A stretch of DNA of 64,000 bases from Mobula hypostoma (taxonomy: Eukaryota): contig NC_086097.1 of assembly GCF_963921235.1 (NCBI RefSeq), positions 45,076,001 to 45,140,000 on the forward strand, in the 5' to 3' direction. The notes under the pieces are model-generated. The model did not search any database. It saw only the letters and a program-made list of their open reading frames with translations, and was not told the DNA's origin. Below are positions 7,106 through 54,314 of the stretch, piece after piece. The stretch's first letter is position 1; the number at the start of each line of letters is the position of its first letter. Made by a program: the position numbers and the translations under genes.

Positions 7106-7214
7106 TTTCATCTACAAATTCCACGGGGAGCTTTGACTGTCATCAGCTGGTGTGTAAAATACAAATGTTATCATTTTCATAATTTTCTAAGGCAAAAAAA
7201 CATTTTATTAAGAA

Positions 7215-8864: not shown

Positions 8865-9749
8865 GGAGATTACAAAGGCAAGATCATGCCCTTTTGCCTT
8901 CATGGAATTTATGTACAGTAACATATACGAGATCTTGAATTCAGGAATTTAATTTAATAACATGTAATACATTGCAAATTATGCATGTTAGAATATTTCT
9001 TCATTATGGCCTCAATTAAACCTGTTCCAGGTCCTCTTCACAATAACCATTTCAATTTCACTTTTGCATATGAATGATTTCTGTATTTTTATATCTGCTC
9101 TTTCCTTGCAGGTATCCATTAGCAACCAGCTTGTGATTTTGACTCCACCTTCATTATGATTGCAATGTTATGTTCATTGGCCTCTACATTGATCCAGTCT
9201 AAAACTTCAGTATTTAACTTATGGCTTTGCACCTTATGAGCTGGCCTGCTATGATAAATCCCCTTTTAAAACCAGAAGATTAAAGCCTATTGCTTTCTAC
9301 TATCTCTATCTGAGATGCAAGTAAGCTTTCTTGGTGATCTAGATATTTGATAGAAGGGTTAGCAGAGTATCAAAAATAAATTTAAATCATTTTCAAAGAG
9401 CTATCAGGGAAGGGTTGGATTTAGTCATCTAGTGAATAGAGATTAGACCACAAGGCCACAAGACATAGGAGCAGAATTAGGCCATTCAGCCCATCGAGTC
9501 TGCTCCACCGTTGTGGCATGAACTGAAAACAAAGACTTCTGTTAACCTAGTAATTAGTTGAAAAATACTTCTCATTGAGTGAAAGAAGGAATGCACTTCA
9601 GTGACCAAGTTTAATTATTAATACAATTTATACCTTGGAACAGATTGGAACAGAAGAATAAAATAGATTTGCTACAGATAAGGACAATGTGACATCTCAC
9701 ACACTGATATCCATGGTTGACTTCTCAAGCAGCTATTGTATAACTGAAT

Positions 9750-10990
9750 ACATGACTTTGTGAGGACAGATCGTGCCTCATGAACCTGGCTGAATTCTTC
9801 AAGAAAGTGGTGAAACAAATTGATGAAGGTGGAGCAGTGGATGTGGTGTATATGGATTTTAGTAAGGCATGTGACCACAGTTCCTGTGGTAGTCTGATTC
9901 AGAAAGTCAGGGAGCATGGTGTCCAGGTAAATTTGACTGCGTGAAGTCAGAATTGGCCTGATCACAGAAGGCAGAGGGTGGCAGTAGATGGAGCGTATTT
10001 AGGCTTGAGGTCGGTGACCAGTGGTGCTCTGCAGGCATCTGTTTTTGGACCACGACTCTTTATGCTTTTTTAAAGCATCTTAGATGAGGAAATGGAAGTG
10101 TGAGTTAGTAAGTTTGCAGATGATAGGAAGGTTAGTGTTGTTGTGGATAGAGTAGAAGTTTGTTGTAGGTTACAACAGGACATTGATACGATACAGAGCT
10201 GGACTAAGAGGTGGCAGGTGGAGTTCAATCCAGAAACGTGTGAAGTTTTAAACTTTGGAAGATCAAACTTGAAAGCAGAGTACAAGGTTAATAGCAGGAT
10301 TTTTATCAGCGTACAGGAACAGAGAGACTTTGGGGCCCACATCCATAGATCCCTCAAAGTTGCTGCTCAAATTGATAGTGTGGTTAAGAAGGTGTAAGGA
10401 GTGTTGGCCTTCATTAGTCATGGGATTGATTTTAAGCGTTGCTTGATAATATTTAAGCTCTATAAGACACCACATTTGGAACATTGTGTTCTGTTCTGGT
10501 TACCTCATTATAGGAAGGATGTGGAAGCTTTAGAGAGGGCACAGAGGAGATCTACCAGGATGAATGAGAGAACATGTCTTATGTGGAAAAGGTTAGTAAG
10601 CTAGGGTTTTTCTCTTTAGAGGAAAGGAGGGCGAGAGGTGATTTGAAAGAATATGTAGAATGATAAGAGGCATAAATAGAATGGACAGCCTATGCCTTTC
10701 TCCCAGGGTGGAAATGGCTAACACAAGGGGGCATCATTTTAAGGTAATTGGAGGAAAATATAGAGGGGTGGGTCTGAAGTAGGTTCTTTACACAGAGAGT
10801 GGTGCATGCATGGGATGTGCTGCCAGGGTTGGCGATAGAGATAGATACATACGTTACATTTAGGAGACTCTTAAAGAAGAATGGCGGGCTATGTGGGAGG
10901 GAAGGGTTAAATTGATCTTAGAGTAGGTGAAAAAGTCAGCACAATAATTTGGGCTGAAATGCCTGTACTGTGTTATATTCTATGTTCTGT
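9750..10990 (+). mobile_element. CR1-like LINE RT/3' fragment
   Basis: DVVYMDFSKA, SKFADDRKV, LQQDIDTIQSWTKRWQVEFNPETCEVL, LEHCVLFWLPHYRKDV, then the CR1 3' UTR. Confidence 0.9.
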
Positions 10991-11034
10991 GAAAGTCTGG
11001 GAGTTCATTAGAAACAGTAGATTAAAGACCGAAG

Positions 11035-11355
11035 ATTAGTGCTTTATTTGTATGCACAAGGGAAAATAGAAACATACAGTAAATGTATTGTTTGCATCAA
11101 CGCCCAACATCCAAGGATATGCTGAGGCAGGTCACAAATATCACCATGTTTCCAGTGCCAATGAAGCGTGCCCACAACTTCCTAACCATAATTGTATGTC
11201 TTTTGAATTGGGAGGAAACCAGAGCACCTGGAGGAACCCACACGGTCAGGGGGAGGTGTAAATCTCCTGACAGACAGTGGAGGGAATTGAATCCAGATCT
11301 TCTGATTGCTGGTGTTGTAAAGCATTATGTTAACCACCACACTACCATGCCAGCC
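11035..11355 (-). mobile_element. tRNA-derived SINE
   Basis: Reverse complement of the SINE core (GGGAGGAAACCAGAGCACCTGGAGGAACCCACACGGTCA) and B-box (GGGAATTGAATCC). Confidence 0.75.
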
Positions 11356-13099
11356 TTTAGCTATTTAAGGGAATTTTTGTCTTATTAAAAGGCATTTTCT
11401 TTAGTCTGTTAAATAACAGTTGCATTTTGGATTTTAAACATCTATTCTTCTGGAACTAAGGGAATCCCAGTCAATTATGGAATTTACCAATTTCCTGACG
11501 TCACCAATCCAGATGCAGATACTCAGAAAAGTAGTTGGCCAAAACAAGGAAAGTAGTGAAGAGGACAGAAGCTTCTGAAATTAGTACTGATTCAATGTAG
11601 CTGACAATATACCCTCTGGTGGTTGTTTTGTGCAGTGTTTTATTTTTAGCCACATTCACTATGGAGTACTCTGTTATCAAGGTTTAATTCAGCACACATT
11701 GTCCATTTCTTCTCATTTAAAAGGGAATTTGTGTAAAAGTAAAAATTTCTTAATATGTTGTAAATTGTGATACTCGTCACTTGTATTGAGAAGGTCTGCT
11801 ATATCAAAAGCTGTTAAATGACAGCTGTTAAACAGAACAATGTGTGGCTTTGATTTAAAACAGCTTCACAGGAACCAGGCCCAAACAACTGTCTTCACCC
11901 TTGACCCAGATTGCTCTCAGTGGAAAAAGGCATGGCAAAAACGTCAGAAGATTCAAAACAGTTCTCCTAGAGGGATAAGTAATCAAACTGGAGAATGGTT
12001 CCCCAAAGTATAGAACCATACAGCTTGGACACAGGTCCCATGGTCCACCAAATCTGTGTTATCTATCAAGTACTATTTTGAGAACAGCAAGAACTGTAAA
12101 CTATTTATCAAAGGCAATCCAGCATTCAGACAAATTAACTAACTTGTGACAGAGTTCTATTAAACTGTTTTCCCCCATATCCCTTAACATTTTGTTTATC
12201 AAGCATTTGTCTGTCTCAGATTTAAAATATTTACTTCAATTTCTGTTTGCAGAATAGAGATCTAAATCCCTACTACATTCTGTATGTAGAAGAGTTTTCT
12301 CAATTCACTCTTGAGAGATATGGCTCTAATTCCTAGATTATGTTTCCTCGTCCTGGACTTGCTAAGCAACATAAATACTTCCTCTCCAGCTACTCTGTCA
12401 TTTCATCTTAACCTCTTGAAAACTGAATTCAAATCAACATTCCCAACAAATACAATTCTAATTTCTAAGATGACTCCCTTTAACCTAACCGGCAGTATTC
12501 AGTTATCCGCTCTACTCCCTCTAAAACTAATAAATGGCTTCCAAGATGTAATGTGCAGAACTACTCAGAATACATCAGGAGTTCTCTAATCATGGATTTC
12601 TGCAACTGTAGAATGACTTCTTTCCCCTTATACCGCTGCCTTGTAGCTAAAATTTATCTTCAATTGGGCTTTTGATTATTTTTATATGTTTCCTTTTTTA
12701 TTAGGGTTTTGAGGTCTGAGTTTCATAGACAAGACTAGAATGTATTACCTTACCTTAACAGCCCTTCAAAAGATGGTGGTAAGTCTCCTTCTTGAACTAC
12801 AACAGTTCTTTTTGGTTAAGATGCTCCTATGATGCTGTTGGGTTAAGTTTTCCTGGATTTAGATCTGGCAACAGTAAAGAAATGGTTACAGACTTCCAAA
12901 TCGTATTGTTGGTTGAGTGGAGGGGAAACTGCAGAGTGCTGTTCTCATGGTCCAGCTGCTCACATCCTCCTTGGTGGCAGAGATTGTGGGTTTGGGCCCA
13001 GGTGAGTAGATGTGTGCACTGCTGTCAGAGTATGCAGTTGTGAAGCGGTTCAGACAAAGATATCTCTTCTCTGGTCCTCACCTTCCATCCAACGGGCCT

Positions 13100-13620
13100 C
13101 TACGTAAAATTCATCACCCTTTACAATTTTTGCTAGATCTGAAAAGCTCCCACCACCAAATACCTTATCTCATCCTCTCCCTTTTCAGAGAAGTTGGTTC
13201 CTTCATGGCTCCCTAACCTGCTCTTCCATTTTCACCAGCCATAATCTTAGAGCTCTTTCCTACGCAGCCACAGAAGAAGTAACACCTGTCCTTTTCGCTC
13301 TTCCCTTCCAACCTTCTGCAAACTAAACGGTCTCTGCAGGTGTCCAGTCAGGTGTACTCCATTCTGTAATGGAGAAACCAAACACAGATTAGTTGATTGC
13401 ATTGCAGAGCCTCTGGGTTCACTCCACAGGAGTGATACTGAGTTCCTTGTTCCCTGCCACTTTAATTCTCCATTCTACTGAATTGTCTGTGGCCTCCGGC
13501 ACAGTTATAACGAGGTCCAACACAAAGCTGTGGAGCAAAGGCACATCTTTTATTTGCATCCTTCTATGTATATCAATACTGGTTCCCCAGCTTCAGCCAG
13601 CTCTCTTTCTGTTTGTGTCA
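13100..13620 (+). mobile_element. Old Penelope-like remnant
   Basis: Decayed similarity to the GIY-YIG region of the 23.5-25.2 kb element (GGAGAAACCAAACACAGATT, CACTTTAATTCTCC, GGAGCAAAGGCACATC). Confidence 0.5.
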
Positions 13621-14094
13621 GAACAATAAAATATGATGGGATGTCTGTGTTCTTTTGATAGGGAAATCTTGTATTTATAATTTAATGACTGAGAATGCTC
13701 AAGCTACTTAGTTCTTACCAAAAAAATTTTTCAGGATCTAAGTTGACAGCTCTAGATGAAGTCGTTTCTCAGTTCAGAAGAAGGATTATCTCTCTACCAA
13801 TGCTGCTTGACTGACTGAGTGTTTTCAGTACTTTATGTTTTCATTTTAAATAATTGCACCATTCAGCTCCCTACTATCATCAAGGTGACCGAACAAATTT
13901 TCTTCATTGTAATCAAGTAACGTCCACTGATACTTTTGCAGTGTTTCCACCAAAACCAACCAGGTTACAGCTTTAGTCCATTCATAGATATTCCAAAAAG
14001 AAAGTGGTAGTGGCTGCAATTTTAAGAGATTGTGATTGTCAAATTTGGCTATATGGAGTTCAGGGGCAAACATTCCAATGCCACAAGAGGTACT

Positions 14095-14390
14095 GAGGCA
14101 TGGTAGTGCAGTGGTTAGGACAACCTTTACAGTGCCAGTCAGGCTCATTTCCTGTTGCTGCCTGTAAGGACTTTGTATGTTCTCCTCCTGACTACATGGG
14201 TTTCCTCCGGGTGCTCGGGTTTCCTCCTACAGTCCCAAGATGTATTGGTTGGTAGGTTAGCTGATCATTAAGTTGTCTTGTGTTTAGGCTAGGATTAAAT
14301 TCGGGGGGGGGCAGGTGTTGGTTGCTGAGCAACTTGGCTCAAAGGGCCAGAAGGGCCTGTTCTATGCTATATCTCAATAAATAAATAAAA
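14095..14390 (+). mobile_element. tRNA-derived SINE with CR1-like tail
   Basis: A-box-like GGTAGTGCAGTGGTTAG, core GGGTTTCCTCCGGGTGCTCGGGTTTCCTCC, tail GGGCCAGAAGGGCCTGTT...(AATA)n. Confidence 0.8.
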
Positions 14391-14845
14391 TACTGTGGAG
14401 GTTGCAGAAAAGCAAAAATTAACATAATGTCCAGGTAAGGATAGATTGCAGGAAGAGTGTAGACAGCCCAGGAAAAAAGTCTTTGAAGAGGATAGCTTCC
14501 CACTGCATAGTAGGTTATGTTTACTGGAGATGAGGTAAGAATATGATGAAAGGGTATGAGACACACACAGCAACGAAGGGACAATTGCTTTACTAACTTC
14601 ACAGTATCATCAGCTGTCAGCTCGTAGTTTCTATCGATTTTTAACACCTGCAATGTGAATGGTGATTGATCTTGCAAGTAAGGAATTGAAATTTACATAT
14701 TTTACTGACTGGTAAATATCCTTAACTACTAGTCGATTCTGTATAAAAATTGCATTTTCCTGTTCTGACTTCAGAACAGTGTGGTCACGAGGGGCCATGA
14801 TATTCTCCTTGTGCACAAGTAAAATAAAGTATGTTTGAGGAATAA

Positions 14846-14871
14846 GTGTGTGTGTGTGTGTGTGTGTGTGT
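14846..14871. repeat. (GT)n microsatellite
   Basis: About 13 perfect GT units. Confidence 0.95.
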
Positions 14872-15282
14872 CCAGAATCCACTTAATTGGCAACAGGAGA
14901 CACACCTGGCACAAAGAACAGAGTCTGGTTTCTGGGTATTTCAAGATATCACTGCTGATACTATAATGATCTAACTACATAACTCATCACTAAAATCTAT
15001 TTCGTCCTCCATTGATCTCAGTTGTAAATTCAGTTCTGAACATGTCCGGGAGGGGGTGTGCATGATTGAAGGGAAGGCTGATTACTGAAGCATATGCTCA
15101 CAAAGCTACCATAATGCTAGAATCAGGTTTAAAATCACTGACTTATGTAGTGAAATTTGTTGTTTTGTGGCTACAGAGAAATCCAGTTGTCTGGTGTCAA
15201 ATAAAGGCAGACTCATGGACAAGTCCCATTTTTCCTTGGATGGTATTGCTATCCTATCCATCTCTGAGAAACCAGACAAGAG

Positions 15283-15805
15283 TGTCAGGACGCTGGGACG
15301 CTAGAGCGGGGATCCAATCACAGACCCAGCACTGTGCACACAGTGATATTAATTGAGTAACAAATCCCAAGGTGTAAACAAAGTCAGCATCAAAGTTCAG
15401 GCAGAGATCAAAACGTCCAGAGAAATCCAAAAACCAGAATCAGGCAGAGTTGATATTCAGACAGACAGAGTACAGCTACAAATGCTGGAAAGGCTCAGGA
15501 AAATTCACTAGCACAATCTAGCAACAAACAGGTGAAAACACAGGACTAAAATAAACTGAGCAATAAACAGAGAGGCAGATGATAGGTGGAGCACAATGAG
15601 ACACAGGTGGCAGCAACACAGGTAATAATGAGAAACAGGTGAGAGGCGGAGTACTCAGTAATACAGGGGCCGGAGTAGAGCAGGAGCGGGGACAGGAGCA
15701 CATGGAGTATGAAAACAAACAAGAGCACATGGCAATACAAAAACACAGACTGACAGCTAGGGGAAAAACATACAAAAAGACAAAGTTCAACTGGAGGTTC
15801 TGACA
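15283..15805 (-). mobile_element. Solo LTR (Gypsy-type) with 5-bp TSD
   Basis: Termini TGTCAGGA...TTCTGACA; AAGAG is duplicated at 15278-15282 and 15806-15810. Removing the insert restores the HERO frame KPDKSLGK. Confidence 0.85.
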
Positions 15806-16136
15806 AAGAGCCTGGGGAAGGTCTTTGACTGCAGCCTAAGAGATATGGCTGCCATCCAGAAAACAACTAAGGAGTTAGAAGTCTGGCTCACCAGTGAGAA
15901 CAAGTCAGGCCTACCTGGCAAGTTCAAGGCCTGGATCTATCAGCATAGCATCCTCCCTTGAATCCTCTGACCCACACTGGTATATGGTGTACCCACGACT
16001 ACATTTGAGGTTCCTGAAAGAAAAATCAGTGACTACCTTTGAAAATGGCTGTGCCTCCCATGTAGCATCAGAAGCTTTGCTCTGTATGGGAAGGGGAATA
16101 AATTGCAGCTTCCCTTCAGCAGGCTAAATGAGGAGG

Positions 16137-17571
16137 CAAACACAAGGAAATCTGCAGATGCTGGAAATTCAAGCAACACACATAAAAATTGCTGGTGAAC
16201 ACAGCAGGCCAGGCAGCATCTATAGGAAGAGGTACAGTCGATGTTTCGGGCCGAGACCCTTCGACAGGACTAAATGAAGGAAGAGATAGTAAGAGATTTG
16301 AAAGTGGGTGGGGGAGATCAGAAATGATAGGAGAAGACAGGAGGGGAAAGGATGGAGCTAAGAACTGGAAAGTTGATTGGCAAAAGGGATCGTTGTCTTG
16401 TCTATCCCTCGAGGTCGAGGATGATGGTCTTCATTCTGTTGATCTACTTAAGGGCTGTCAAGTGGCTTATGAGTCCAATCTTAGCTTTGAAAGTTCTTCT
16501 GCATTCAGGACAGGTAGTTCCAGATGGCAGATCGGGCTTTGGTTGTAGCTGCCTCTCTTTCCAGTTTCTTCTCTTTTCTTCTAATTCTGCACATCTGTTG
16601 GCTTCGAAAGTTGCTGTTCCTTCTCAGATGATGGCTTGCCAGAGTTTCCTGTCCTTGGCATTGGTTTCCCAATTGTTGATGTCGATGTTACATTTCTTCA
16701 TGTTGGCTTTTAAGACATCTTTGAATCTCTTCTGTTGTCCACCTCTTTTACGTTTGCCTTCTTTAAGTTGGGAGTAGAAGATTTGTATGACTGCTCCATC
16801 TTAGTTGGTTCTTGATGACGTAGGCTTCAATGCTTGTTGTTTTTGCTTCATTTAGCACACTGATGTTGGTTCTTCTATCTTCCCAGTTGATATTTAAGAT
16901 ATTTCGAAGACAGCGTTGATGGAACTTTTCAAGTGCCTTCAGATGTTGTCGGTATGGCAAAAGGGATACAAGGCTGGAGAGGGGACAGGATCATGGGACG
17001 GGAGGCCTAGGGAGAAAGAAAGGGGGAAGGGAGCCCAGAGGATGGGCAAGGAGTTTTAGTGAGATGGACAGAGGGAGAAAAAAGAGAGAAAAAAAATAAT
17101 AACAATATGAACATTGACTTCTCTAACTTCTGTTAATGCCCCACCTCCCCTTCGTACCCCATCCCTTATTTATTTATTTATTTATTTATTTATTCATTCA
17201 TTCATTCATTTATTCCCCCCCCCTCTCTTTTTTTTCTCCCTCTGTCCCACTCACTATAACTCCTTGCCCATCCTCTGGGCTCCCCTCCCCCTTTATTTCT
17301 CCCTAGGCCTCCCATCCCATGATCCCCTCCCTTCTCCAGCCTCGTATCCCTTTTGCCAATCAAGTTTCCAGCTCTTAGCTCCATCCCTCCCCCCTCTTGT
17401 CTTCTATCATTTCGGATCTCTCCCTCCCCTTCCCACTTTCAAATCTCTGACTATTTCTTCTTTCAGTTAGTCCTGACGAAGGGTCTCGCCCTGAAGAAGG
17501 GTCGCCCTGAAATGTCAACTGTACCTCTTCCTATAGATGCTGCCTGGCCTGTTGTGTTCACCAGCATTTTT
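16137..17571. mobile_element. Inverted pair of Penelope pseudo-LTRs
   Basis: 16137-17100 (minus orientation, split by an RTE) is the reverse complement of 17101-17571. Both arms match the pLTR at 23475-23860. Flanked by TAA(A/C)TGAGGAGG at 16125-16136 and 17572-17583. Confidence 0.85.
16391..16954 (-). mobile_element. RTE-clade LINE 3' fragment with 13-bp TSD
   Basis: ORF 16763-16960 YRQHLKALEKFHQRCLRNILNINWEDRRTNISVL...QLRW is typical of the RTE C-terminus. TGGCAAAAGGGAT is duplicated at 16378-16390 and 16955-16967. Confidence 0.9.
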
Positions 17572-17940
17572 TAACTGAGGAGGTTATGGTTTCTCATACA
17601 AGAGAATTGCTGCTATACCGAGATTCCAGTGACCCCAAAGTCTTTCAGCAGAAATTGAGGTCCAGACAGGTAGGAAATGGAAGAACAAGGACATGATAGA
17701 GATGAATGAGTCACGTCTGAGGCACAGGGTTCTGATAGGGACAGGTATCCTGCCTAGTCCAGCAAACCTTTTTGCTTGGAGCAAAAGTGAGGCACCATTG
17801 TGTCCTCGCTGCCCTGGAATATATCCTCAGACCTGGGGGAAGGCTGCTACTGCTGTCACCATAACTGGGTTCTGAAGGCAGTAGCAAAAAATAACCCCTT
17901 GACCATTAACAACCATAACAACACCTCTGCCATCCCAGAA

Positions 17941-18580
17941 AGAACATGGAACATAGAAATCTACAACACATTACTGGCCCTTCGGCCCACAATGTTGTGC
18001 TGACCATGTAACTAACTCTAGAAACTGCCTAGAATTTCCCTAGCGCATAGCCCTCTATTTTTCTAAGCTCCATGTACTTACCTAAGAGGCTCTTAAAAGA
18101 CCCTATTGTATCCGTTTCCACCACCGCTGCTGGCAGTGCATTCCATGCACTCACTACTCTGTGTGAAAAACTTAGCCCTCACATCCCCTCGGACCCTGTT
18201 TCCAAGCACCTGAAAACTATGCCATTTCAGCCCTGGGAAAAAGCCTCTGGCTATCCACATGATCAATGCCCCTCATCATCTTATACACCTCTACCAGGTC
18301 ACCTCTCATCCTCTGTCACTCCAAGGAGAAAAAGCCAAGTTCACTCAACATATTCTTATAAGGTACACCCTCCAATCCAGGCAACATCCTTGTAAATCTC
18401 CTCTACACTCTCTCTATAGTATCCACATCCTTCCTGTAGTGAAGTGACCAGAACTGAACACAGTACTCCAAGTGGGGTCCACCTAGGGTCTTAAAAAGCT
18501 GTAACATTACCTCACAGCTCTTGAACTCAATCCCACGGTTGATGGATGTCAACACACCATATGCTTTCTTATCAACATAG
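17941..18580 (-). mobile_element. CR1-like LINE 3' fragment inside the HERO-like element
   Basis: ORF 18403-18597 KKAYGVLTSINRGIEFKS...LEYCVQFWSLHYRKDV; tail at ~17941-17960. Confidence 0.9.
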
Positions 18581-20879
18581 CTCATAGGCTTTGTCAAAGC
18601 TGGAGAACAACCATAGCCTCAGCAGGCTTGCTCGGCACGGGAAGTCTGACTGGAAACAGGAAGTTGATCTTGGCTAATAATTAATGTTCCCCGACTTCAT
18701 CACATCATCTTCACTGAGGCCTGACATGGTCATTCTGTTAGAAACTTCATTGATAGAACTGTGGTCATGGTAGAACTGACAGCTCCTTAGGAAGACCAGA
18801 TTGAGGAGCAGTTTGAGCATAGGAAAGCCAATTAGTAGGAGTTGGTAGAGCGAGACTATAGAGGTGGGGCATAGAGGTTTTGCTGGCTGCTCGCTGTGCT
18901 GAATCTACTCTCTCCTTGGCATCACAGGGGCTGCAAAGAAATGAGCCATCAGGACTGTCACAGAAGTTGCTGAGTGTCCCTCCAGATGGCCATGGATCAA
19001 GAGATGTGACCTGTGGACTGATGATGCTTGGACACAGTCTGGGATCTGATCAACCCTGGCTGGGACACCTGAGCGAGAATGTCCGATGTGGAAAGATCCG
19101 AACCACCTGAAGACCCCAGGTTGCATTGCTGATGATATGTCCCAGCACATCCGAGGATGTATCTCAGCATTAGTATATTGCACTACGTAATAATGAAATC
19201 TGTAAGCTATAGTCATTGGCTGGGAGGCATTTGAGACACATGAGGATGTAAATTCTGATTTCGTCTACTAAATGGATGCTGTGGTTAACACTATGCCCAA
19301 TCTGTGGATCCTCCAAAAACAGTGAAATTGGGAAAAATTGCCTTTAAAAGATTGCAATGCTCTCCATATGGCACAATGACTTCCAATTTCATTTTGTGAG
19401 GAATGGTCTGGCATTGATTAGAGCAGCTTAGATTCAGATGGGCTAGGCTAGAGGAAATTATTCATGGCTAGTGTGCACTAATGCAAAAGAGTTCTAATTC
19501 TGCTGCCTAAGTGCTTGAATCCTTGCATTACTAATACACACAAAAATCCTGTACAAGTGATACCAGGTCAATTGGGCTGGACAATGCGCACCTGTGTAGC
19601 GTATGTTTTCACGTGCCGTTGAATTTCTGAGCTCGAGAGTCTCAGCTTGGTTACGTCCAGCCTTGGACCTTAGTCTTCCAAACATAAAAATCAAATGACT
19701 TGTCAATCTTTACAAGGGCAAATGTACTGTTCTTTATAGAGAAAAACACTTAAATTAATTTATTAATTCACAGTATTAATGTCAAGTAATGTTAATGGAA
19801 AGGCTGGACTGATGCCAGTTTTTTGCTTCACTGCTGAAAGCTGTGTTCTCTGCTAATGGAATGGAAAAGGAAAAGCTCTATTACTTCATATGTCGGAACC
19901 AGCTATCCAACTGCAATAACTGTTTACATTTATGGTTTTAATTCTTAACAAATGTATCAAGTTATTTCTTGGAACTGTATGAATATCTTCTTTACAGATT
20001 ATGAATTTCAAAAGACAACTAAATTAGGAGCCACTGAATAATATCATCAACAAATAAGAGTATAATTGTACCATTCCTTGTCCGTAAAGTTTCAAAGCCA
20101 AATGTATAAATTTTCAGTCACTTTCTGACATTGCAATTAAAAAACGATGTGTATAGATATAATTGTAATCATTTGTACAAGATTTTATGCATATTGTTTA
20201 GGCAAAATTAAATTTTACCTTATGACATTGAGATCTTCCTTCTGCTCAAATTAATATTTAAGGACTGCACAGCCCATTACTTAAGGGTTTCCATAACTGA
20301 GTATTTTTAATGATTTGGGTTGTTTTCAATTTCCATTGTTTAAGTGATTCCAGCATGAAATTATATGATAATTATGAAAATAGTACATCGTAATTACAGC
20401 TACATTGAGGAGAACCAAAAGGACAGTCTAAGGAATTAAGAGGACATAGGCCCCGGGACACAATTGTATGGATTTGGATGAATAAAGATGTTGATTTGTT
20501 TGGTTTTAGTTTTCATGATTTCTGCAGAAGAAAGCTCTGAGATAATCAGTGCAGAGAGGTGGTAACGAAGTGGTAGTGTCACAAAGGGATTTAGATTTCA
20601 CCTTATTCATTATAACTCTTGGCCTGAGAGCTTAGTTACTCATTCTCAATTTGCTATTGAGCCTAGTGAGAGGCTGGCTTTGTAACCTATTGTGGTTCCT
20701 GGCTTGAGGTTATTTCAATACAGCTGGTTTCAGGACATCTCCAACATCATAAATGAATGAGCAAAGAGGGAAGGGAAAGGTATGCTTCAAAGTGAGATTA
20801 TTGTGTGACTTGGATCCCAAATTTCAGTAGCCTAACTGCAGTTACCTCTGTCCTGCTAGGCAACAATGGCCATTGTATT

Positions 20880-23472: not shown

Positions 23473-25255
23473 TCAAAGTTGCTGGTGAACGCAGCAGGCC
23501 AGGCAGCATCTCTAGGAAGAGGTACAGTCGACGTTTCGGGCCGAGACCCTTCGTCAGGACTAACTGAAGGAAGAGTTAGTAAGAGATTTGAAAGTGGGGG
23601 GGGAGGGGGAGATTCAAAATGATAGGAGAAGACAGGAGGGGGAGGGATGGAGCCAAGAGCTGGACAGGTGATTGGCAAAGGGGATATGAGAGGATCATGG
23701 GACAGGAGGCCCAGGGATAAAGACAAAGGGGGGGGACCCAGAGGATGGGCAAGGGGTATAGTCAGAGGGACAGAGGGAGAAAAAGGAGAGTGAGAGAAAG
23801 AATGTTTGTATAAAAATAAATAACGGATGGGGTATGAGGGGGGAGGTGGGGCATTAGCGGAAGTTAGAGAAGTCAATGTTCATGCCATCAGGTTGGAGGC
23901 TACCCAGACGGAATATAAGGTGTTGTTCCTCCAACCTGAGTGTGGCTTCATCTTTACAGCAGAGGAGGCCATGGATAGACATGTCAGAATGGGAATGGGA
24001 TGTGGAATTAAAATGTGTGGCCACTGGGAGATCCTGCTTTCTCTGGCGGACAGAGCGTAGGTGTTCAGCAAAGCGGTCTCCCAGTCTGCGTCGGGTCTCA
24101 CCAATATATAAAAGGCCACATCGAGAGCACCGGACGCAGTATATCATCCCAGCCGACTCACAGGTGAAGTGTTGCCTCACCTGGAAGGACTGTTTGGGGC
24201 CCTGAATGGTGGTAAGGGAGGAAGTGTAAGGGCATGTGTAGCACTTGTTCCGCTTACACGGATAAGTGCCAGGAGGGAGATCAGTGGGGAGGGATGGGGG
24301 GGACGAATGGACAAGGGAGCCGCATAGGGAGCGATCCCTGCGGAAAGCAGAGAGAGTGGGGGAGGGAAAGATGTGCTTAGTGGTGGGATCCCGTTGGAGG
24401 TGGCGGAAGTTACGGAGAATAATATGTTGGACCCGGAGGCTGGTGGGGTGGTAGGTGAGGACCAGGGGAACCCTATTCCTAGTGGGGTGGCGGGAGGATG
24501 GAGTGAGAACAGATGTACGTGAAATGGGGGAGATGTGTTTGAGAGCAGAGTTGATAGTGGAGGAAGGGAAGCCCCTTTCTTTAAAAAAGGAGGACATCTC
24601 CCTCGTCCTGGAATGAAAAGCCTCATCCTGAGAGCAGATGCGGCGGAGACGGAGGAATTGTGAGAAGGGAATGGCATTTTTGCAAGAGACAGGGTGAGAA
24701 GAGGAATAGTCCAGATAGCTGTGAGAGTCAGTAGGCTTATAGTAGACATCAGTGGATAAACTGTCTCCAGAGACAGAGACAGAAAGATCTAGAAAGGGGA
24801 GGGGGGTGTCAGAAATGGACCAGGTAAACTTGAGGGCAGGGTAAAAGTTGGAGGCAAAGTTAATAAAGTCAACGAGCTCTGCATGCGTGCAGGAAGCAGC
24901 GCCAATGCAGTCGTTGATGTAGCGTAGGAAAAGTGGGGGACAGATACCAGAATAGGTTTGGAACATAGAATGTTCACAAAGCCAACAAAAAGGCAGGCAT
25001 AGCTAAGACCCATACGGGTGCCCATAGCTACACCTTTAGTTTGGAGGAAGTGGGAGGAGCCAAAGGAGAAATTATTAAGAGTAAGGACTAATTCTGCTAG
25101 ACGGAGCAGAGTGGTGGTAGAGGGGAACTGGTTAGGTCTGGAATCCAAAAGGAAGCGGAGAGCTTTGAGACCTTTCTGATGGGGGATGGAAGTATTCTTA
25201 GCAAAGGAAAAGTGGGGGATTCTTAGCATCTGCAGAATTCCTGTTGTTTGCGTTT
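23473..25255 (-). mobile_element. Penelope-like element (Neptune-type), 5'-truncated: RT + Cys linker + GIY-YIG + pLTR
   Basis: ORF 24789-25229 has QTKGVAMGTRMG. ORF 23854-24966 has LRYINDC (YIDD mutated), CKRNKCYTC and IYCVRCSRCGLLYIGET. TGGAATATTTA flanks at 23462-23472 and 25262-25272. Confidence 0.95.
23526..23561 (-). ncRNA. Minimal type I hammerhead ribozyme motif in Penelope pLTR
   Basis: Minus strand AGTC-CTGACGA-AGGGTCTCGGCCC-GAAAC-GTC-GACT: intact core, stem I AGTC/GACT, stem II hairpin, palindromic loopless stem III. Confidence 0.85.
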
Positions 25256-25589
25256 TTAAAATGGAATATTTACCTTGGCAAGCCCGTGGTAGTCACCATA
25301 ATGTTTCTCATGGCCCATAGTTTCAGTCGTGATCTTCTCTTTAGTGCAAACTGAGTCTAGAACAGAGAGGGCAACAATGTTCAAGAGGGATATACAAGAC
25401 AAAGACACCCACATGGTTGGTGCTCCATCCATCACTCTCAGCTTTCATTTCTTCCACCAGTAGTGCGGGGCGGCTGCAGTGTGCATCACCGACACAGTTC
25501 ACTGGCAGCACTGCCCAGGAAGCTCAAAGGCTTCAGTACACAGGAATACCCCCACTTGCAAGTTTACCTCCAAGTCAATGGCATGACTT

Positions 25590-27142: not shown

Positions 27143-29183
27143 AGGGTAGATGAAGAGATAACAGATGCATTGTCATGATCTTTCAAGAATCACTTGATTT
27201 GGGCATGTTCCTGGAGGACTTAAAGGTTGCAAATGTCACTTCACTCTTTAAGAAGGGAGGAAGGCAAAAGAAACAAAATTATAGGCCAGTTAGCCTAACC
27301 TCAGTGGGAATGTGTTGGAGTCTATTGTTAACTATGAGGTTTCAAGGTACTTGGAGACTAATAATAAAATAAGTCAAAGTCAGCATTATTTCTGTAAAGG
27401 GAAATCTTGCCTGACAAATCTGTTAGAGTTCTTCAAGGAAGTGACAAGCAGGTTGGACAAAGGCGAGGCAGTGGATGTCATTTACTTGGATTTTCAGAAG
27501 GCGTTTGATAAGGTGCCACACAAGAGGCTGCTTAACAAGATAAAACCATTAGGTGTTACAGGAAAAATACTGGCATGGATAGAGGAATGGCTGACAGGCA
27601 GGAGGAGGCGAGTGGAAATAAAACGGGCCTTTTCTGGGTGGCTTCCGGTGGCTAGTGGTTTTCCTCAGGGGACAGTATTGAAACCACTACTTTTCACCTT
27701 GCTTGTCAATGATTTAGATAATGGAATTGATGGCAAAGTTTGTGGATGGTATGAAGATAGGTGGAGGGATAGATAGTGCTGAGGAAGCAATGCAATTGCT
27801 GCAGGATTTAGACAAATTGGAAGAACGGGCAAAAAAGTGGCAGGTGGAATACAGTGTTGGGAAATGTATGATAATGCATTTTGGTAAAAGGAACAATAGT
27901 GCGGACTATTATCTAAACGGGAGAGGGTTCAAACGTCACAGGTGCAGAGGGACTTAGGAGTCCTCACGCAAGACTCCCAGAAGGTTAATTTACAGGTTGA
28001 GTCCGTGGTAAAAAAGGCAAATGCAATGTTGGAATTTATTTCAAGGAGAATAAAATATAAAAGGAAGGAGATAATGTTGAGCCTTTATAAGATACTAGTC
28101 AGGCTGCGGGGTGTATGGGGTGTCTAGGGAGGGGTAGCACCTCTGGTGGGGGGGGCCTGCCGTGTCCTTTTTCAGGGCAGCTCATCCACCTTTGGTCCCC
28201 ACCTGGCACTCAGCTCTCACCTGTGGCTCCAAGTAGCTGTAGCACGCGCAGCGGCCACACCCCGGTAAACTGTCTCGGCAGACGGGCCAAACCAGGTGAG
28301 GGTAGCCGACGGGTCTTCAACCCTTGGTGAGGTACGGGATTTGCCTATCCCAGCGTGTGAAGTCTGGCCCTGGCAGATGGAGCAGAGGAGACTGATTAAT
28401 AGTCCAACGGTCAAGAAGGCAGGCCAGCAGGCGTTGTGGAGCTAGGAGCACGACAAGGCACTTAGACGTCCTGGTCATCCACTGCAAGAGGTGGTGATCT
28501 CTTTAATCTCACCCGGCGGAAGGCAAAGGCAAACCACTGCTGTAACTTGCCGATTTCCCAATATGTCAGAGCGGCATGGAGGGAAATTATCCGCCAACTG
28601 GAGTTTCCAGATGCGACCTAAAGTGAAGCGAGTCAGGCTGCACTTGGAATATTGTCAACAGTTTGGGGCCCCATATCTCAGAAAGGATGTGTTGTCATTG
28701 GAAAGAGTCCAGAGGAGGTTCATGAGGATGATTCCAGGAATTAAGTGGTTAACATATGAGAAGCATTTGGCAGCTTTGGCCCTGTACTCACTGGAATTTA
28801 GAAGAATACGTGGGGATCTCATTGAAACCTACCGAATGTTGAAAGGACTAGATGGGTTGGATATGGAGAGGATGCTTCCTATGGTGAGGGTATCCAGAAC
28901 AAGAGGGCACAGCCTTAAAATTGAGGGGCGACCCTTTAGAACGGAGGTAAGCCAGAGAGAAGGGAATCTGTAGAATGCTCTGCCAAAGACTGCGGTCGAA
29001 ACCAAGTCCGTGGGTACATTTAAGGCAGATCATTTCCTGATCGGTCCAGGCATCAAAGGATACAGCGAGAAGGCCGGTGTATGGGGTTAAGTGGGATCCG
29101 GCGTCAGTCATGGTAGAATGACAGAACAAAGTCAATAGGCTGAATGGCCTAATTCTGCTCCTATGTCTTATGGTCTTATGATC
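27143..29183 (+). mobile_element. CR1-like LINE ORF2 fragment to 3' tail, interrupted at 28108-28630
   Basis: ORFs 27175-27776 (NYRPVSLTS, YLDFQKAFDKVPH), 27721-28127 and 28640-28973; tail TCTTATGGTCTTATG at ~29166-29180. Confidence 0.95.
28108..28630 (+). mobile_element. RTE-related non-coding insertion with 11-bp TSD
   Basis: AGTCAGGCTGC is duplicated at 28097-28107 and 28631-28641. The insert is GC-rich and contains GGCAAAGGCAAACCAC. Removing it restores CR1 LVRLHLEYC. Confidence 0.7.
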
Positions 29184-29769
29184 TCCCTTTCCAGGGGCAC
29201 CAGCAAGGTAGGCGCATCAGGCTCACAGGCCCTCTCATTGCTATACAGCAAGGAGTTGGGGTGATCTTCATTTGAATGACTGCAAGGACCTCTTTCTAGT
29301 AGCACACCCTTCCGAACTGTCCAGTTGACCGCTGGCCCAACTGCTGAAAGGGCCCGGTTCACTTGCATTCACTCCCCATTCAGGCTGGGGGCTGACTGGC
29401 TTCAGGTGCCATGTGCAATCTTTCTCAGTCTGCCATACCATTGAAATCGTGGAACCTCATATCTCTGTTTTAACTTAAGTCCCTCACCATCTATTTTTCC
29501 CAATATCTTTTCTATTCTATGCTATTCAACTAATCATCTACCTTCAGCAACCAACCTTCATTACAGAGTACCATCACCATTACACTTTGGCACACTATTC
29601 ATGGTTTTTGTCAAGCTCTCGGTGCCTTCTGCCTTTGTGTTTGCTGTGGGTGTGTTTCCATCATCTGTGGTCAGGTCTAACGTGGCCGGCTGGTGTTCAT
29701 CTCTTAGGTTCTCTGTAATTACACGGTTACTGGGTACACTTGATCCCCTGCTCTGTCTGTGGGAGCAAC

Positions 29770-32030
29770 AAGAAGGCGAGTCATACTGTTTAACTTGAGT
29801 CCAGTGTTTCCACTGGCTGCTTCGCGGAGTCTGCACACAGACACAAGTGTCACTTGCAAAAAGTACCATCGATGGCCCGATCCATCTGGGAACAAACTCT
29901 TCCCTTTCATGCAGCAGCTTCACCATGACTTGGTCACCTAGCTGTTGGAGGACTATCTCCTTTCCCTCCAGCTCCCTCTGATCAGCAATGTGCTGCTGTT
30001 GTTTTGCTCAGCCTTTCAACACTTTAAGCTGGTTACTAAGGTCTTACACATACTGTGCCATTTTATCCCTGTAAGCCCCCGGCTCCCCGCAACCCGTAAT
30101 TACCCCATAGGGGAGTTGCATTGCCCGCCCCATCAATAATTCATAGGGGCTGAGACCCAGCGTGTAGTTTGAGGTTGCACGCAATCTCATCAGGATTCCT
30201 GGTGATACATCAACCCATATCTTTCCCATCTCGGTTATAGCTTTGGCTAAAGCATTCTTGATTGCTTGGTTCATCCTTTTTACCATTCCTGAACTCTGGG
30301 GGTGGTAGGGTACGTGGAACCGTTGTCGAATCCCTAGCAGTCGGCACATTTCCTTCATCACTTTCCCTATGAAATGCGCTCCCTGATCTGAATCCACCTG
30401 AACTGGGGTTCCCCACCTTGGGAGGATTTCCTGAACTAGGATCCATGCAGCAGTGCGGGCGGTGCAGTCCCTTGTTGGGAAAGCCTCTACCCCCCCAGGT
30501 GAAGTGATCCATAATTACTAGACGGTAGCTTTTCCCCCTGCTTTTCGGCAGGGGCCCCATGAAGTCCATCTACCTGTTTTCTCAGGGTTCTCTGGGCCGA
30601 GGCTGGTTTGCCAGCTGTAGTTTTATGCCCTTACCAGGGCACAAATGATAGAATAGTAGCAGAATTTCTCACCACCCCCGCCTATCCCTGGCCACCACCA
30701 GTCCTGCCAGAGGGTTGTGATCATATTCTGCCTTCCCTGATGCATCGCCCCATGATAAAACTTCAATAGTATCTGCCTAATACATGGTGGGACTACTGTG
30801 ACCCTTTCCTCCCCGTGTGTCCAGCTCCCACCTGGTCCCTCCTTTGCTCCTTTTCTCCCCCATTCTCCTTCTGCCTCCAAATCTTCATATAACTTTACTA
30901 ATCTGGTTTCAGTCGTTTCTTCCTGCACACTTTCAATTTCAATTGCCTCTTGTTCCTCTGCTGCCTTCTTTGCAGTAATGCCTGCCCACTCATTTCCTTT
31001 CAGCTCCTGACTCTCCCGTCTCTGGTGAGCTTTTACTTTAATCACTGCCATCTCTGCTGGCAGACTCACTGCTTCTGGCAGTTGTTGAATTAGGTGCCCG
31101 TGCTGAATGCCTGCCCCTGTTGAGGATACCAATCCTCACCGTGCCCATGCCATCAGATCATCATGCACCACCCCGAGGGCATATCGGCTGTCTGTATATA
31201 TTTGCTCATTTGCCTTCACTGTGGAGCAGTTCTTCCGTCAGTGCCACCAGTTCCACCACCTGAGCTGAGCAACACTCTGGCAAATAATTCTTCAGCTGAT
31301 TCCTTCACCAAGGCCCACCCAGTACCGTCTATGTAACTCTGAGACCCACCTATAAACACTTTCTCTGCTTCCCTTTCCAGAGGTGTTTCCCTCACACCGA
31401 TACCTTCCTCCTGCTCTACTTCTATTTGGCACTCATGTGCCCCCACCCCCCGTTAGAATGGTGCTTGCGGGCTTCATTCCAGTGTCCCTAACCACCGTTA
31501 CTGACTTACAAACAACTGGCAGTGTGTCACTTTTTATAGGATACTGCTTATGGGGTTTATGCAGGCCCCTCTCTATTTTAAATGGGTTTATTTTTACTTG
31601 ACCACAATCTTGCTTGTGTCTAGCCCACACCGATGGGAACTGCTGACAAAGTAGCCCATAGAAACCAAAGTGGCTCCAGTCTCTGACGATCAGAGCAGCT
31701 GTGGCTTCGTTGGCTATGTTGCGTACTCTGTTGGTGATACGAGTTCGCTGCCCCAGGCTTGGCCATATTATTTCTCCCTTTCCTGAATCTATAATGGTCC
31801 CTGCTTCCCTTAGGATGTCTATTCCCAGGATGGTACCCTCAGTATCTGGACAGGCACTGGAATACTCTGAAAGCTGCACCCCGCCAATTTTGAGTATCTG
31901 CTTTCACTGGTTTTCCTCCTACACCCATAATATAAATAGCCTGTTTGGTTGTTGGAAAGGGTGGTTCAGTTATCAATACTAATACATCGCACTGCCGGTC
32001 CCCTACAATCCTGTTGTGTATAGCCGTAGG
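29770..32030 (-). pseudogene. pol: Retroviral pro-pol remnant
   Basis: PR (IMGVGG; ILGIDIL), RT N-terminus (VWARHKQDCG..KQYPI), tether end (KPAS..HEC), RNase H (FIGGS; SAQVVEL; IYTDSRYALG; AVIKVKAH; GNEWA), IN (H-x3-H, WWWPG, MDFMGPLP, DSDQGAHF, PYHPQSSGMV, PRWIGP). Confidence 0.9.
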
Positions 32031-33023
32031 TCATCAGCGATGGTAGTGGGGGCCTTTGCCACATCATTTTCTGATATACAAGCCATCTTCACCAGCTGTA
32101 TGATCTGATCGACAGTCAGATTGGTCAGATTGGTCAGATTGGGCACTGGTGGGGTGAGAGATTGCATGTTTGTTGTGACTTTCACCTGTTTTTCTTTTCT
32201 CTTTTTTGGTCACTGTCTCCAACCATGTCCTGATAGGCCACAGCTGTAGCATATCAACTCTTTTACCCTCCCATTTCTATTCCAGCAGTTCCTTCCTCTG
32301 TGCCTTGGCTGCTGGCACACAAAGTGAACCCTCTGCGACATCACAGCAGCTGCATCCACTATAACAACTTTACGATTTCTCTTGCACTTTCTTTGGTCTA
32401 ACTCACTGGCCCACGAAACTATCGCAGAGTAGGACAACCCCACCGTTATGCCCAAATCTAAAACTTCCTGGTGGGCTGAGCTCAGGCCTTCCTTCAGCAT
32501 TTTCGGAAGACTTGGTCGGCCCTCCCTGGATTATCGAACCCCAAATACTCCTCATACGCTCGATATTTACGTTCTGCCTAATCCATGGCTGTTTCATCAG
32601 CTTTTTGAATTACTGGCATTACCGTTCCCTGGTGACTCTCACCTCTCCCCAGTCACTGCCTCACACCACCTTTAAAGGAGCGATATCTTTCTTCATTGCT
32701 GGAATTCCTGGTAGTTGCCCAGGTACCATCCCGCACCCCCTGGGTCATCCTGTCCCACATATTCCTCGGGCACTTCACTTTTACCAACATGTGTATATCT
32801 TTAGGATGCATCTGGTGAATTTCAACCACTTCCTTGAACTTGCGCCACAATTCCAAATTCCCACATGCAACTTTGACAGAGGGCAACTTAGACAAAATGA
32901 TCTGTTTCTCCCCGGGGGGGGGGTGGTGGTGACACGTTTATGAATGGTCATTATCAAGGTCACGGGCTGGCTCGGATCATCAGGGTTCTCAGCCTGACAT
33001 TCCCTGACCTCAATAGGTGCCAT
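32030..33023 (-). pseudogene. gag: gag remnant with two CCHC zinc knuckles
   Basis: ATG at 33023 and capsid-like fragments (ORFs 32653-32895, 32210-32500). Knuckles read hFVCQQPRHRGRNC and CYSCGLSGHGWRQ*. Confidence 0.75.
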
Positions 33024-33500
33024 CCTGACAGATATCCGGGTAAAATCTCTCCCTGAAATATTTCCATTTCCACAGTACACAAAAAATAAAAGACGGGTAC
33101 CAGTTAAATAGCACATACTCAAAACCACAGAGTATGTACTCTGCAATCTGCTATTTTTGTGCGCCTGAATTCCTGATGCCTGCTGTATTCCTATGCGACA
33201 CTCTTGCAAAATGCATATGCTAAAATGCAGCTCCCGGAATGAGTATACACGCCCCCCACTTTGGCGTCTCAAGCCTTCAATAACTGGCTTTCCAACTGGT
33301 GGCCCCGTCTCTTATGTGAACACACATGCATGCACACAATTTTATTTTTATATCTACCAGTTCAGCTCTCTGTGTTTGTGATCCCTCATGTTCCTGTGTG
33401 TCACTGACCCGAACAGATCCAAGTGTGAGTGCTAATTTTAAAAATACTCACCCACTTAGACCCCGAAGATTGCTGGCCACATGATGGGTCGCACAAAGGT

Positions 33501-33518
33501 ATCCCACTTCTGACACCA
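33501..33518 (-). promoter_or_regulatory. Primer-binding site complementary to tRNA-Leu 3' end
   Basis: Minus strand TGGTGTCAGAAGTGGGAT is the complement of ATCCCACTTCTGACACCA (vertebrate tRNA-Leu 3' 18 nt, recalled). It lies 5 nt inside the LTR end. Confidence 0.9.
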
Positions 33519-33523
33519 AACAT

Positions 33524-34062
33524 TGTTGTGTGAGTTAAGTCACCGGAGAAAGGTACTGGTAGACATGAAGCAGCCACTTTATTTGACAAAACGAGATACA
33601 GTAGGCATCATATTGAGAACCTTTCGGTGGAGAAGGTCTGGCTGGCCCAACACTACCCGACATTTTATGTGCTTAACATCAAAGGACAATTCCATATTTA
33701 CAATGCATCCACAATGCTTTCTTTGAGACCATACACAAACTTCATACTCCCAATTTGCACCCACACCACCGACATCTAAATATATTATAATCAGCACTGT
33801 CTGGTCTGTGGTTCAAGGCTTTTAGGGACCTATTGTTCAATGCAACATTTTAAATTTAATCTACAATCTATATTCGGATTTGAAGGTTGGTGGCTGAAGT
33901 TATTTGTAATATGTGTGAAACCCAAAAAAAAAAACAATCCAACGTACAAAAGCTATGTGTGCTGAGAATTAGACCATGCCCAGCTGAATAAAATTCAAGT
34001 TTGATGTATCGGCGAAGACCAATTCGCTTTAGGACAATAAACTAAAGTAAGTTATATCTACA
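33524..34062 (-). repeat. Putative 5' LTR of the ERV-like element
   Basis: Minus termini TGTAG...CAACA, TATA-like CATAAAA at ~33663-33669, AATAAA at 33578-33583. No second copy exists here to confirm the outer boundary. Confidence 0.6.
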
Positions 34063-34102
34063 TTTCTCCCACAGAGCAGTATAAAAAAGTTCAAAAGTAA
34101 AT

Positions 34103-34290
34103 TTAGATTAGATTAGATTAGATTGGATTATGAGGACACTTAGTCCTCGTTTATTGTCATTTGGCAATGTATGCATTAAGAAATGATACAATGTTCCTCC
34201 AATATGACATCACAGAAACACAAGACAGAGCAAGACTAAAACTGACAAAAACCACATAATTATAACATATAGTTACAACAGTGCAAAGCA
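34103..34290 (-). mobile_element. 3' fragment of the same retroposon family as 866-1535
   Basis: (GATTA)n followed by TGAGGACACTTAGTCCTCGTTTATTGTCATTT..., closely matching 866-1050. Confidence 0.8.
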
Positions 34291-52194: not shown

Positions 52195-53590
52195 GGTAGC
52201 ATCTATAGAAATGAATAAACAGTTGATGATTTGGGCCAAGACCCTTCTTCAGGACTGGAAAGGAAGGGGGAAGACACCAGAATAAAAAGGTGGAGTGAGG
52301 GGAAGGAGGCTAGCTAGAAGGTGATGGTGAAGCCAGATGGGTGGGAACTGTAAAGGGCTGGGGAACAAGAAATCTGATAGGAGAGGAGAGTGGACCATGG
52401 GAGAAAGTGAAGGATAAGGGGTGCTGGGGGAGGTGGTAGGCGGGTGAGGAGAAGAGGTAAGAGGCTAGAGTGGGGGACAGAAGAAGGATGGGAGAGGAGG
52501 AAAAAGATTTCCCAGAAGGACAAATCAATGTTCATACCATCAGGTTGTAGGCTACCTATATGGAATGTGAAGTGTTGCTCCCCCACCCTGAGAATTGCCT
52601 CATCATGGCAAGAGGAGGCCATGGATCAACATGTTGGAATGGAAATGAGGATAGAGATTAAAATGGCTGGCCACAGAGAAACTCCGCTTTTTGTGGAAGC
52701 GCATGATGAAGTGATTGCCCTTTTTACACTGGGATGCACAAATGTAGAGGAGGTCACATCGGGAGCACCAGACACAATTGATAACCCCAACAGATTCACA
52801 TGTGAAGTGTTGCCTCATATAGAAAGACTGCCTGGGGCCTTGAATGGAGGTAAGGGAGGAGGTAAGTGGGCAGGTCGCTTGCAGGGAAACGTGCCAGGAG
52901 GGAGATTAGTGGGGAGAGACAAATGAACAAGGGAATCATGGAGAGTGAGATCCCTGCAAAAGCAGAGAGTGGGAGTAAGGGTGGATAAAGATGAGTTTGG
53001 TGGTAGGATCCTGTTGAAGATGGCAGAAATTACAGATCAATGATGTGTTGGATGTGGAGGCTCCTGGAGTGGTAGGCGAGGACAAGAGGAACTCTATCCC
53101 TGTTAAGGCAGTGGAAAGATTGAGTCGGTGCAGATGTCTGGGAAATGGAGACGTGGGTGAGGAAAACATCAATGATCGAGAAAGGGGAACCCTATTCTTT
53201 GAAGAAAGAGGACATCCCTGATGTCCTGAAAAGGGAAGATGCGGTGGAGATGAAGGAACTGAGAAAAGGGAATAGCAATTTTACAGGAGACAGGGTGGGA
53301 AGAAGTATAGTGAAGATAGTCATGGGAAACAGTAGGTTTATAAAAGATGTCAATAGATAGTTTGTCTCCAGAGATGGAGACAGAGAGATCAAGAAAGGGA
53401 AGAGGGGTGCCAGAAATGAACCAAGTGAATTTAAGGGCAAGGTGGAAGATGGAGGCAAAGTTGATGAAATTGAACAGTCAGCATGGGTGCATAAAGCAGC
53501 ACCAATGCAGCCATCGATGTAGCGCAGGGTGAGTTGTGGAGCATTACCAGGGAAGGCTGGGAACATGGACTGTTCTACATAGCCAGTGAA
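52195..53590 (-). mobile_element. Degenerate Penelope-like (Neptune-type) element in EML1 intron
   Basis: LRYIDGCIGAA, RQHFTCESVGVINCVWCSRC, GSLQPDGMNID; degenerate hammerhead at ~52221-52256. Confidence 0.88.
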
Positions 53591-54314
53591 AAGCTGTTTT
53601 CCAAAATGGAAATCAGGTGAAAGGCTATCATTTTCCAGAAATACAGAATCAAAGAGGTAAAGTGTTAAATAATAGAAGATTCCAAAGACAAAATACAGCT
53701 TAAAAACTCTGAATAATGTCAAGATTTTTATACTCTATTTGCTAAATAAAATAGATTCTACTTTTGAATTCCTCTTCAAACTTCATAGTTTTTATTCATA
53801 TACACCTGATGTTTGTGTTTCACTCCCCTGTCCCATGGGTTTTTGGATTTCTTCTTTGTGTTCTGGACTATATTTTGTAATTCAGTTTGTAGGCAAAGCT
53901 ATGGTCCCACACATTACATTAAAATAAGATGTACAGTAATTCTATTGGGAGTGCAGTACAAGAACCTTGTATTCTGCCTTACCCAACACTACTCAAACAA
54001 CGGTAAAGAAAAATAAAAGTAAAATTGAACAGAAGATTTTGTTAATTATTCAAAGGATCTGGGTATCAAAAGCAAGGCTAAAATTTATTGTCCATCCCCA
54101 AATGTCCCTGAGAAGGTGTTGCTGAGTCAGTTCCTTGAATACTCCAAACCTTCTAGCATTTTTTTCACATTTTCTCCTTTTAACACAGCATTGGTGATAC
54201 AACTGAGTGGCCTGCAGGTCATTTCAGAGGGTGCTTGGGAATCAATCATACAGGTAAAGTCACACATTGGACAGACCAAACAGGTCTCCCTGAAAGACAT
54301 TAGAGTACCTGATT

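Follow-up and report, generated by a model that had tools for sequence, protein, structure and literature searches.

The stretch of DNA analysed here (the window, 64,000 nucleotides of Mobula hypostoma contig NC_086097.1, positions 45,076,001 to 45,140,000) contains, on its minus strand, the remnant of an endogenous retrovirus (ERV) of about 4.7 kb. A long terminal repeat (LTR) end, a primer-binding site (PBS), gag, protease (PR), a truncated reverse transcriptase (RT), tether, RNase H and integrase (IN) follow one another in that order. Stops or frameshifts occur in every gene and decay extends across all of them, leaving both zinc knuckles, the motif of the protease, the first motif of RNase H and the third catalytic position of the integrase degenerate; autonomous replication is impossible for this copy. 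The features, numbered from the first letter of the window, were as follows.

33520–33937, minus strand: 5′ LTR remnant with its U5 end beside the PBS (LTR-like motifs and contig depth; outer edge uncertain, at or below ~33937)
33501–33518, minus strand: PBS (exact 18-nt match to the tRNA-Leu(CAA) 3′ end)
33024–33500, minus strand: leader or N-terminal gag stretch (open frame 33311–32781)
32430–33023, minus strand: gag capsid region, frameshifted and with stops (Gag_p24/p30-like Atlas clusters and a match to protein P0218)
32210–32330, minus strand: nucleocapsid with two degenerate zinc knuckles (motif reading, Pfam)
31750–32006, minus strand: protease, frameshifted, its catalytic motif lost through a small deletion (alignment to P0294)
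31532–31690, minus strand: N-terminal stub of RT (alignment, RT-start motif)
31508–31531, minus strand: in-frame deletion junction, with ~389 codons gone, comprising the core of RT and the greater part of the tether (comparison with relatives)
31426–31507, minus strand: C-terminal end of the tether (connection) domain (alignment, motifs)
30960–31380, minus strand: RNase H of murine leukaemia virus (MLV)/class I type, spread over three frames, first catalytic motif degenerate (Pfam, structure-sequence match, tree)
29780–30800, minus strand: integrase (zinc finger, core and C-terminal domain), interrupted by frameshifts and stops, its third catalytic position degenerate (Pfam, PDB matches, alignment)
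29185–29779, minus strand: 3′ tail past the integrase (within the repeated family by contig depth)
27294–29185, plus strand: fragment of a long interspersed nuclear element (LINE), presumably of CR1 type, a neighbour outside the ERV whose 3′ tail abuts the truncated 3′ end of the ERV

The order of tether, second RNase H and integrase is that of Retroviridae. An RNase H ahead of the integrase had been predicted from the sequence, and its YTDSRY (31198) and KVKAH (31039) motifs were confirmed. Pfam RNase_H passed its cut-off (E 1.2e-6), and the domain matched MLV and xenotropic MLV-related virus at E 7e-10, compared with E 0.93 for 2lsn, which we take to be a foamy-type RNase H entry. The integrase, with a DSDQG motif at 30394, passed the cut-off for Pfam Integrase_H2C2 (E 7.7e-7), while rve (3.5e-7) and MLVIN_C (2.5e-4) fell below theirs; its best PDB matches were to prototype foamy virus (PFV).

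The predicted tether end is present, with KPAS at 31474 and HECQ at 31437 in different frames. The loss of RT was missed by the original prediction. Only 8 codons stand between the RT-start motif (ending at 31532) and the tether-end motif (starting at 31507), compared with 397, 397, 374 and 401 residues in four of the five intact relatives checked (no motif match was obtained in the fifth), and ~389 codons have therefore been deleted in frame. The Pol products of P0301, from the lineage of the window copy, and P0029, from a neighbouring lineage, are also without the RT core (P0325 residues 228–670 and 168–804 missing), at differing junctions. Internal deletion may be common in these lineages, P0029 possibly being a gene-model artefact.

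The gag piece resembles a retroviral capsid (Atlas 0.94, with Gag_p24 on 28% of cluster members, the recognition value lying below the reliable level), and P0218 matched the capsid region at E 1.5e-6. P0218 is a Pelodiscus sinensis gene model in which ERV gag and RT pieces of a related grade are fused to isoaspartyl peptidase/L-asparaginase; it is likely an annotation chimera or an exonised ERV. Gag is compact, as predicted, spanning ~1 kb between 33023 and the protease. The frame lying upstream of the capsid had no BLASTP match to the P0218 N-terminus, a result that neither shows nor excludes a matrix region. Of the two CCHC knuckles described in the original prediction, two remnants were found (32326–32285 and 32251–32213), but neither is an intact CCHC: each lacks one zinc ligand, and the Pfam zf-CCHC model reached only E 0.18. 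At the end of gag (32105–32140), a 9-nt unit stands in short tandem copies, and one sequencing contig steps back 55 nt at 32187–32133.

The tRNA-Leu-type PBS of 18 nt proved exact and could be specified as tRNA-Leu(CAA); the match at 33518–33501 is the only one in the window, against a chance mean of 0.01. A published tRNA-Leu(CAA) probe begins with the same sequence (PMC7997516; here and below, statements on published work refer to those portions of each paper and its supplement that were available to us). The 5′ LTR remnant carries AATAAA at 33583–33578. No second LTR copy was found within the 64-kb window, and a target-site duplication (TSD) is likewise unavailable in this truncated copy. 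Searches of the ~600 nt after the integrase for env similarity, by tblastn with open reading frames of 7 virus loci, Pfam on three frames and the Atlas, were negative, although a blank is not proof of absence. A 22-nt inverted match (20/22) links 33881–33902 in the 5′ LTR region with 29539–29560 in the 3′ tail; its score of 34 exceeded all 200 shuffles (maximum 32), yet blastn gave E 0.08, and it is possibly due to chance.

Parts of the stretch occur in 20 of the 24 sequencing runs listed, from 11 studies, none of which contains at least half of its words. Contigs of four runs were aligned to the stretch at 80% likeness, depth being summed contig depth and not copy number. The ERV family is multi-copy in three organisms: in the three large runs, depth was 182–19,102 over the bins of the element, with dozens of distinct contigs at most listed positions. 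Most listed contig pieces differed from the window copy at ~12–18% of letters, a range bounded by the 80% filter, and the fourth run (X23, whose RNA origin is a guess) gave divergent pieces only. Depth in the bin 33938–34131 was 6.7, 7.5, 0 and 0 in the four runs, and the edge of the element proposed at 34062 is thus unsupported; because depth falls from multi-copy to single-copy-like beyond ~33937, we place the outer edge of the LTR at or below that position. Contigs of all four runs skip 89 nt at 33256–33346, and the leader of the window copy differs from that of some family members. No related loci were found for P0003 among viral contigs or for P0018 among metagenome contigs.

Integrase searches and cluster look-ups led to the intact Pol proteins P0294, P0325, P0177/P0320, P0301 (a cyprinid cluster) and P0003 (an eel cluster). 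The P0177/P0320 cluster includes XP_078069418 of the shark Mustelus asterias, the closest named relative, and because this relative and the LINE-rich window agree with it, the cartilaginous-fish host thought probable from the sequence can be upheld. Five blocks of the window copy were 38–68% identical to the best family proteins, compared with 17–47% for references from snakehead retrovirus (SnRV), walleye epidermal hyperplasia virus 1 (WEHV1), gammaretroviruses, foamy viruses and lokiretroviruses. In a tree of 44 rows built on these blocks, the window row grouped with P0294, P0177, P0296 and P0301 at 100/99, and it stayed with the family when P0325 was added (SH 99 in quick trees of 34 and 25 rows). 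The 44-row tree had a 36-residue integrase N-terminal block in the wrong frame; the 34-row quick tree, with the right frame, agrees with it. The rows of the trees were chosen by hand from ~340 proteins and 39 loci and included no true ERV-L, ERV-S or fish foamy-like ERV (FLERV). Taxon sets were small and branches long, and most trees and all approximately unbiased (AU) tests were run under LG+G4, with one mixture-model run. L001 was taken as SnRV from its length of 10,688 nt (PMC12193657), and lokiretrovirus rows were labelled by motif agreement with the lokiretrovirus supplement (PMC7947760).

Probable members of the same group can be recognized by their motifs in published data sets. In the supplement of Xu et al. 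2018 (PMC6001957), rh_ty_ERV4, ch_my_ERV12, ch_pi_ERV20, ma_te_ERV13 and pe_si_ERV12 carry, by eye, the RT-start and RT motifs of our family proteins, whose RT serves as a proxy for that of the window copy. The gag motif of the window resembles that of ch_my_ERV12, and its PR start that of rh_ty_ERV4, also by eye, whereas the window copy is without RT, env or 3′ LTR. We read this subgroup as belonging to clade Huo of that paper, because it stands at the end of the list ahead of clade Tu, which according to the same source does not occur in reptiles. Three ERVs of Wang & Han 2023 (PMC10435555), Grar.ERVi.1, Grar.ERVi.4 and Rrut.ERVi.3, match P0301 at the RT start and are intact for gag-pro-pol-env by that paper's criteria; these cyprinid elements are 9.6–10.2 kb long, env-bearing and insertionally polymorphic, whereas the window copy, with which P0301 groups, is old, decayed and 4.7 kb. 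We read the element, with a probability of about 0.85, as a dead proviral copy from a multi-copy ERV family of cartilaginous fish, and as a member of an unnamed subgroup that includes Rh_ty_ERV4 (whale shark), Ch_my_ERV12, Ch_pi_ERV20, Ma_te_ERV13 and Pe_si_ERV12 (turtles), and Grar.ERVi.1/4 and Rrut.ERVi.3 (cyprinids).

The copy would thus be a new, dead member of a lineage already catalogued, little studied and unnamed. That the lineage is deep and under-studied, as had been suggested, we accept, though it is not undescribed: through its apparent members in these two data sets the element largely nests within a described ERV group, the outcome that the original prediction had itself named as counting against it. 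Our literature search, which left Hayward 2015, subscription papers, Repbase and Dfam outside its scope, found no paper naming the subgroup or placing it on the stem of class I.

The placement of this family among retroviruses was approached through the proxies. Their RT fell inside Retroviridae, with lokiretroviruses and Gypsy elements excluded, at 100/99 in three trees, and the description of the element as a true retrovirus and not a Gypsy element is borne out by this. A lokiretrovirus or Gypsy origin, which is scarcely credible, might nevertheless be argued from several shared features. Fish Gypsy elements commonly have a tRNA-Leu PBS and two knuckles. Lokiretroviruses also carry a tether plus a second RNase H (Wang & Han 2021, PMC7947760), but by RNase H they group with foamy viruses and by RT they stand as sister to all retroviruses, neither of which holds for the window family, and cartilaginous fish are not among the hosts named in the available part of that paper. 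Lokiretroviral Env is related to paramyxovirus F, and no env is left in the window copy for comparison. The RNase H of the window scored 80.6 bits to its own family and 13.7–17.4 to lokiretrovirus rows, and a family-plus-lokiretrovirus grouping was rejected by AU tests both on the window blocks (p 1.7e-9; quick tree, as for all AU tests on these blocks) and on RT plus tether (p 2.9e-5), so the suggestion of a lokiretrovirus-like element falls. Against Gypsy stand the position of the Gypsy rows outside at 100/99, the second RNase H and an RT outside the Gypsy clade.

Within Retroviridae, a node uniting the family, the eel lineage, Astyanax-type lineages and class I had support of 96/97 on RT plus tether, of 85/99 in the mixture-model run, of 90/99 once class II rows were included and of 100/98 on the window blocks. 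The RNase H tree joined the family, Anguilla and class I at 98/96. This RNase H, of MLV type, together with the MLVIN_C hint, could be taken to indicate an epsilon-like fish ERV within crown class I. We consider this improbable, however, as the proxies' RT does not nest among gamma- and epsilonretroviruses, the family is left outside a gamma/epsilon group that closes at 100/99, the proxies carry LTIDY as their RT motif in place of VQDL or IHDL, and family plus epsilon was rejected (AU p 7.9e-10). The expectation that the element lies outside crown gamma/epsilon retroviruses was therefore confirmed. Our trees also place two more fish ERV clades, well supported and largely unnamed, near the base of class I, one comprising P0178, P0180, P0181, P0183 and P0187 and the other the P0174/P0005 group.

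The RT-only tree gave a wider 95/90 clade taking in the family and foamy viruses which, with PFV as the best PDB integrase match, would be compatible with a fish foamy-like ERV of clade Tu. This is very improbable: family plus foamy was rejected on both data sets (AU p 0.034 on window blocks and 0.014 on RT plus tether, no true fish FLERV being among the rows), and the RNase H is not of foamy type. Fish FLERVs are reported with no Cys-His boxes, with tRNA-Lys, -Asn or -Thr primers and with a YIDD motif (PMC5210030, PMC5512871), unlike the window copy with its two knuckle remnants and tRNA-Leu PBS.

A virus closely akin to SnRV and sister to it, as in CmiERV lineage I, is an unlikely alternative, though less so than those above. 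The subgroup was filed by Xu et al., on our reading, in the Huo part of their tree, a clade defined as SnRV-related (PMC6001957) that also holds SnRV; the elephant shark has a known SnRV-related lineage; and family plus SnRV survived the AU test on RT plus tether (p 0.17). SnRV and the family also have in common a retroviral Pol with an LTIDY-type RT motif. The window blocks rejected it, with p 0.027 for the family and p 3.8e-4 for the window row, and a sister position to SnRV appeared in none of the trees made. Block identity to SnRV was only 23–33%, and SnRV has one knuckle and a different PBS. Of the SnRV-like suggestion in the original prediction, then, what stands is its retention on RT plus tether. 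Monophyly of clade Huo, as a single clade with SnRV and class III-like ERVs, was rejected (AU p 3.6e-4, 1.8e-5 and 0.0014, with Huo rows as assigned in this analysis). The European eel element An_an_ERV1 of Xu et al. 2018 (PMC6001957), which matches P0003, shares gene order, a two-knuckle gag (by eye), a class I-type RNase H and 41% integrase identity with the window copy, but forms a separate branch that is usually nearer to class I than the family is; a grouping of the family with Anguilla was retained at p 0.15 on RT plus tether.

Together, the RT–tether, RNase H and RNase H–integrase trees suggest that the subgroup lies on the class I stem and not with SnRV, and this shark, turtle and bony-fish retrovirus group may branch just below the gamma- and epsilonretroviruses. 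We tentatively propose, at slightly less than even odds, that the family represents the earliest-diverging surviving branch in a fish, shark and turtle grade leading toward class I (the family, eel An_an_ERV1-type, Astyanax/Coilia-type, then gamma plus epsilon). This arrangement would make clade Huo paraphyletic and the MLV-type RNase H and integrase older than the class I RT signature, their presence going back to tRNA-Leu-primed viruses with a two-knuckle Gag; spread in rays possibly occurred as RT-less, non-autonomous copies. The class I stem position is the one result here that departs from print, where the subgroup is filed under clade Huo, and the placement may already have been published.

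Several points weigh against these readings. The ties to published names come from by-eye comparison of partial supplement text and not from alignment or a tree. RT-based placement depends on proxies, the element being without an RT core. The tree of RNase H alone joined the window row to the family at only 83/43, and that of integrase alone (74 rows) did not resolve, none of its starred sets containing the window row. The instability of deep nodes in retrovirus trees is acknowledged in the literature (PMC8922424). As env, paired LTRs and a TSD are all absent from the window copy, an infectious origin is not demonstrable from it alone.

The surroundings of the ERV are otherwise LINE-rich, with many CR1 and L2-like fragments elsewhere in the window. 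The adjoining LINE at 27294–29185, which we assign to CR1 from its sequence features, has its reading frame broken at ~28100–28620 by a GC-richer segment of ~500 nt that is probably a nested repeat. At 23854–25292, 53192–53734 and 7351–7743 lie what we take, again from sequence features, to be Penelope-like RT/GIY-YIG remnants, including a 382-codon open frame.

A history can be proposed for the element. The ancestral virus would have primed reverse transcription with host tRNA-Leu(CAA), produced Gag and Gag-Pol, and then integrated into the germ line. RT may have been lost by deletion after integration, or an RT-less genome may have been copied by enzymes that an intact relative supplied; the data fit either route, and copying in trans is conceivable because the window copy keeps the LTR end and PBS required in cis. 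The env gene and 3′ LTR would most simply have been lost through deletion at or after insertion of the CR1-type LINE.

The window copy itself is an ordinary decayed ERV, and its family is of modest importance. Cartilaginous fish have many ERV RT loci, most of which have been classed as clade III (PMC11089739). If the class I stem position is true, part of this cartilaginous-fish ‘class III’ load would stand as the nearest outgroup of the gamma- and epsilonretroviruses, and the family would date the origin of their type of RNase H and integrase.

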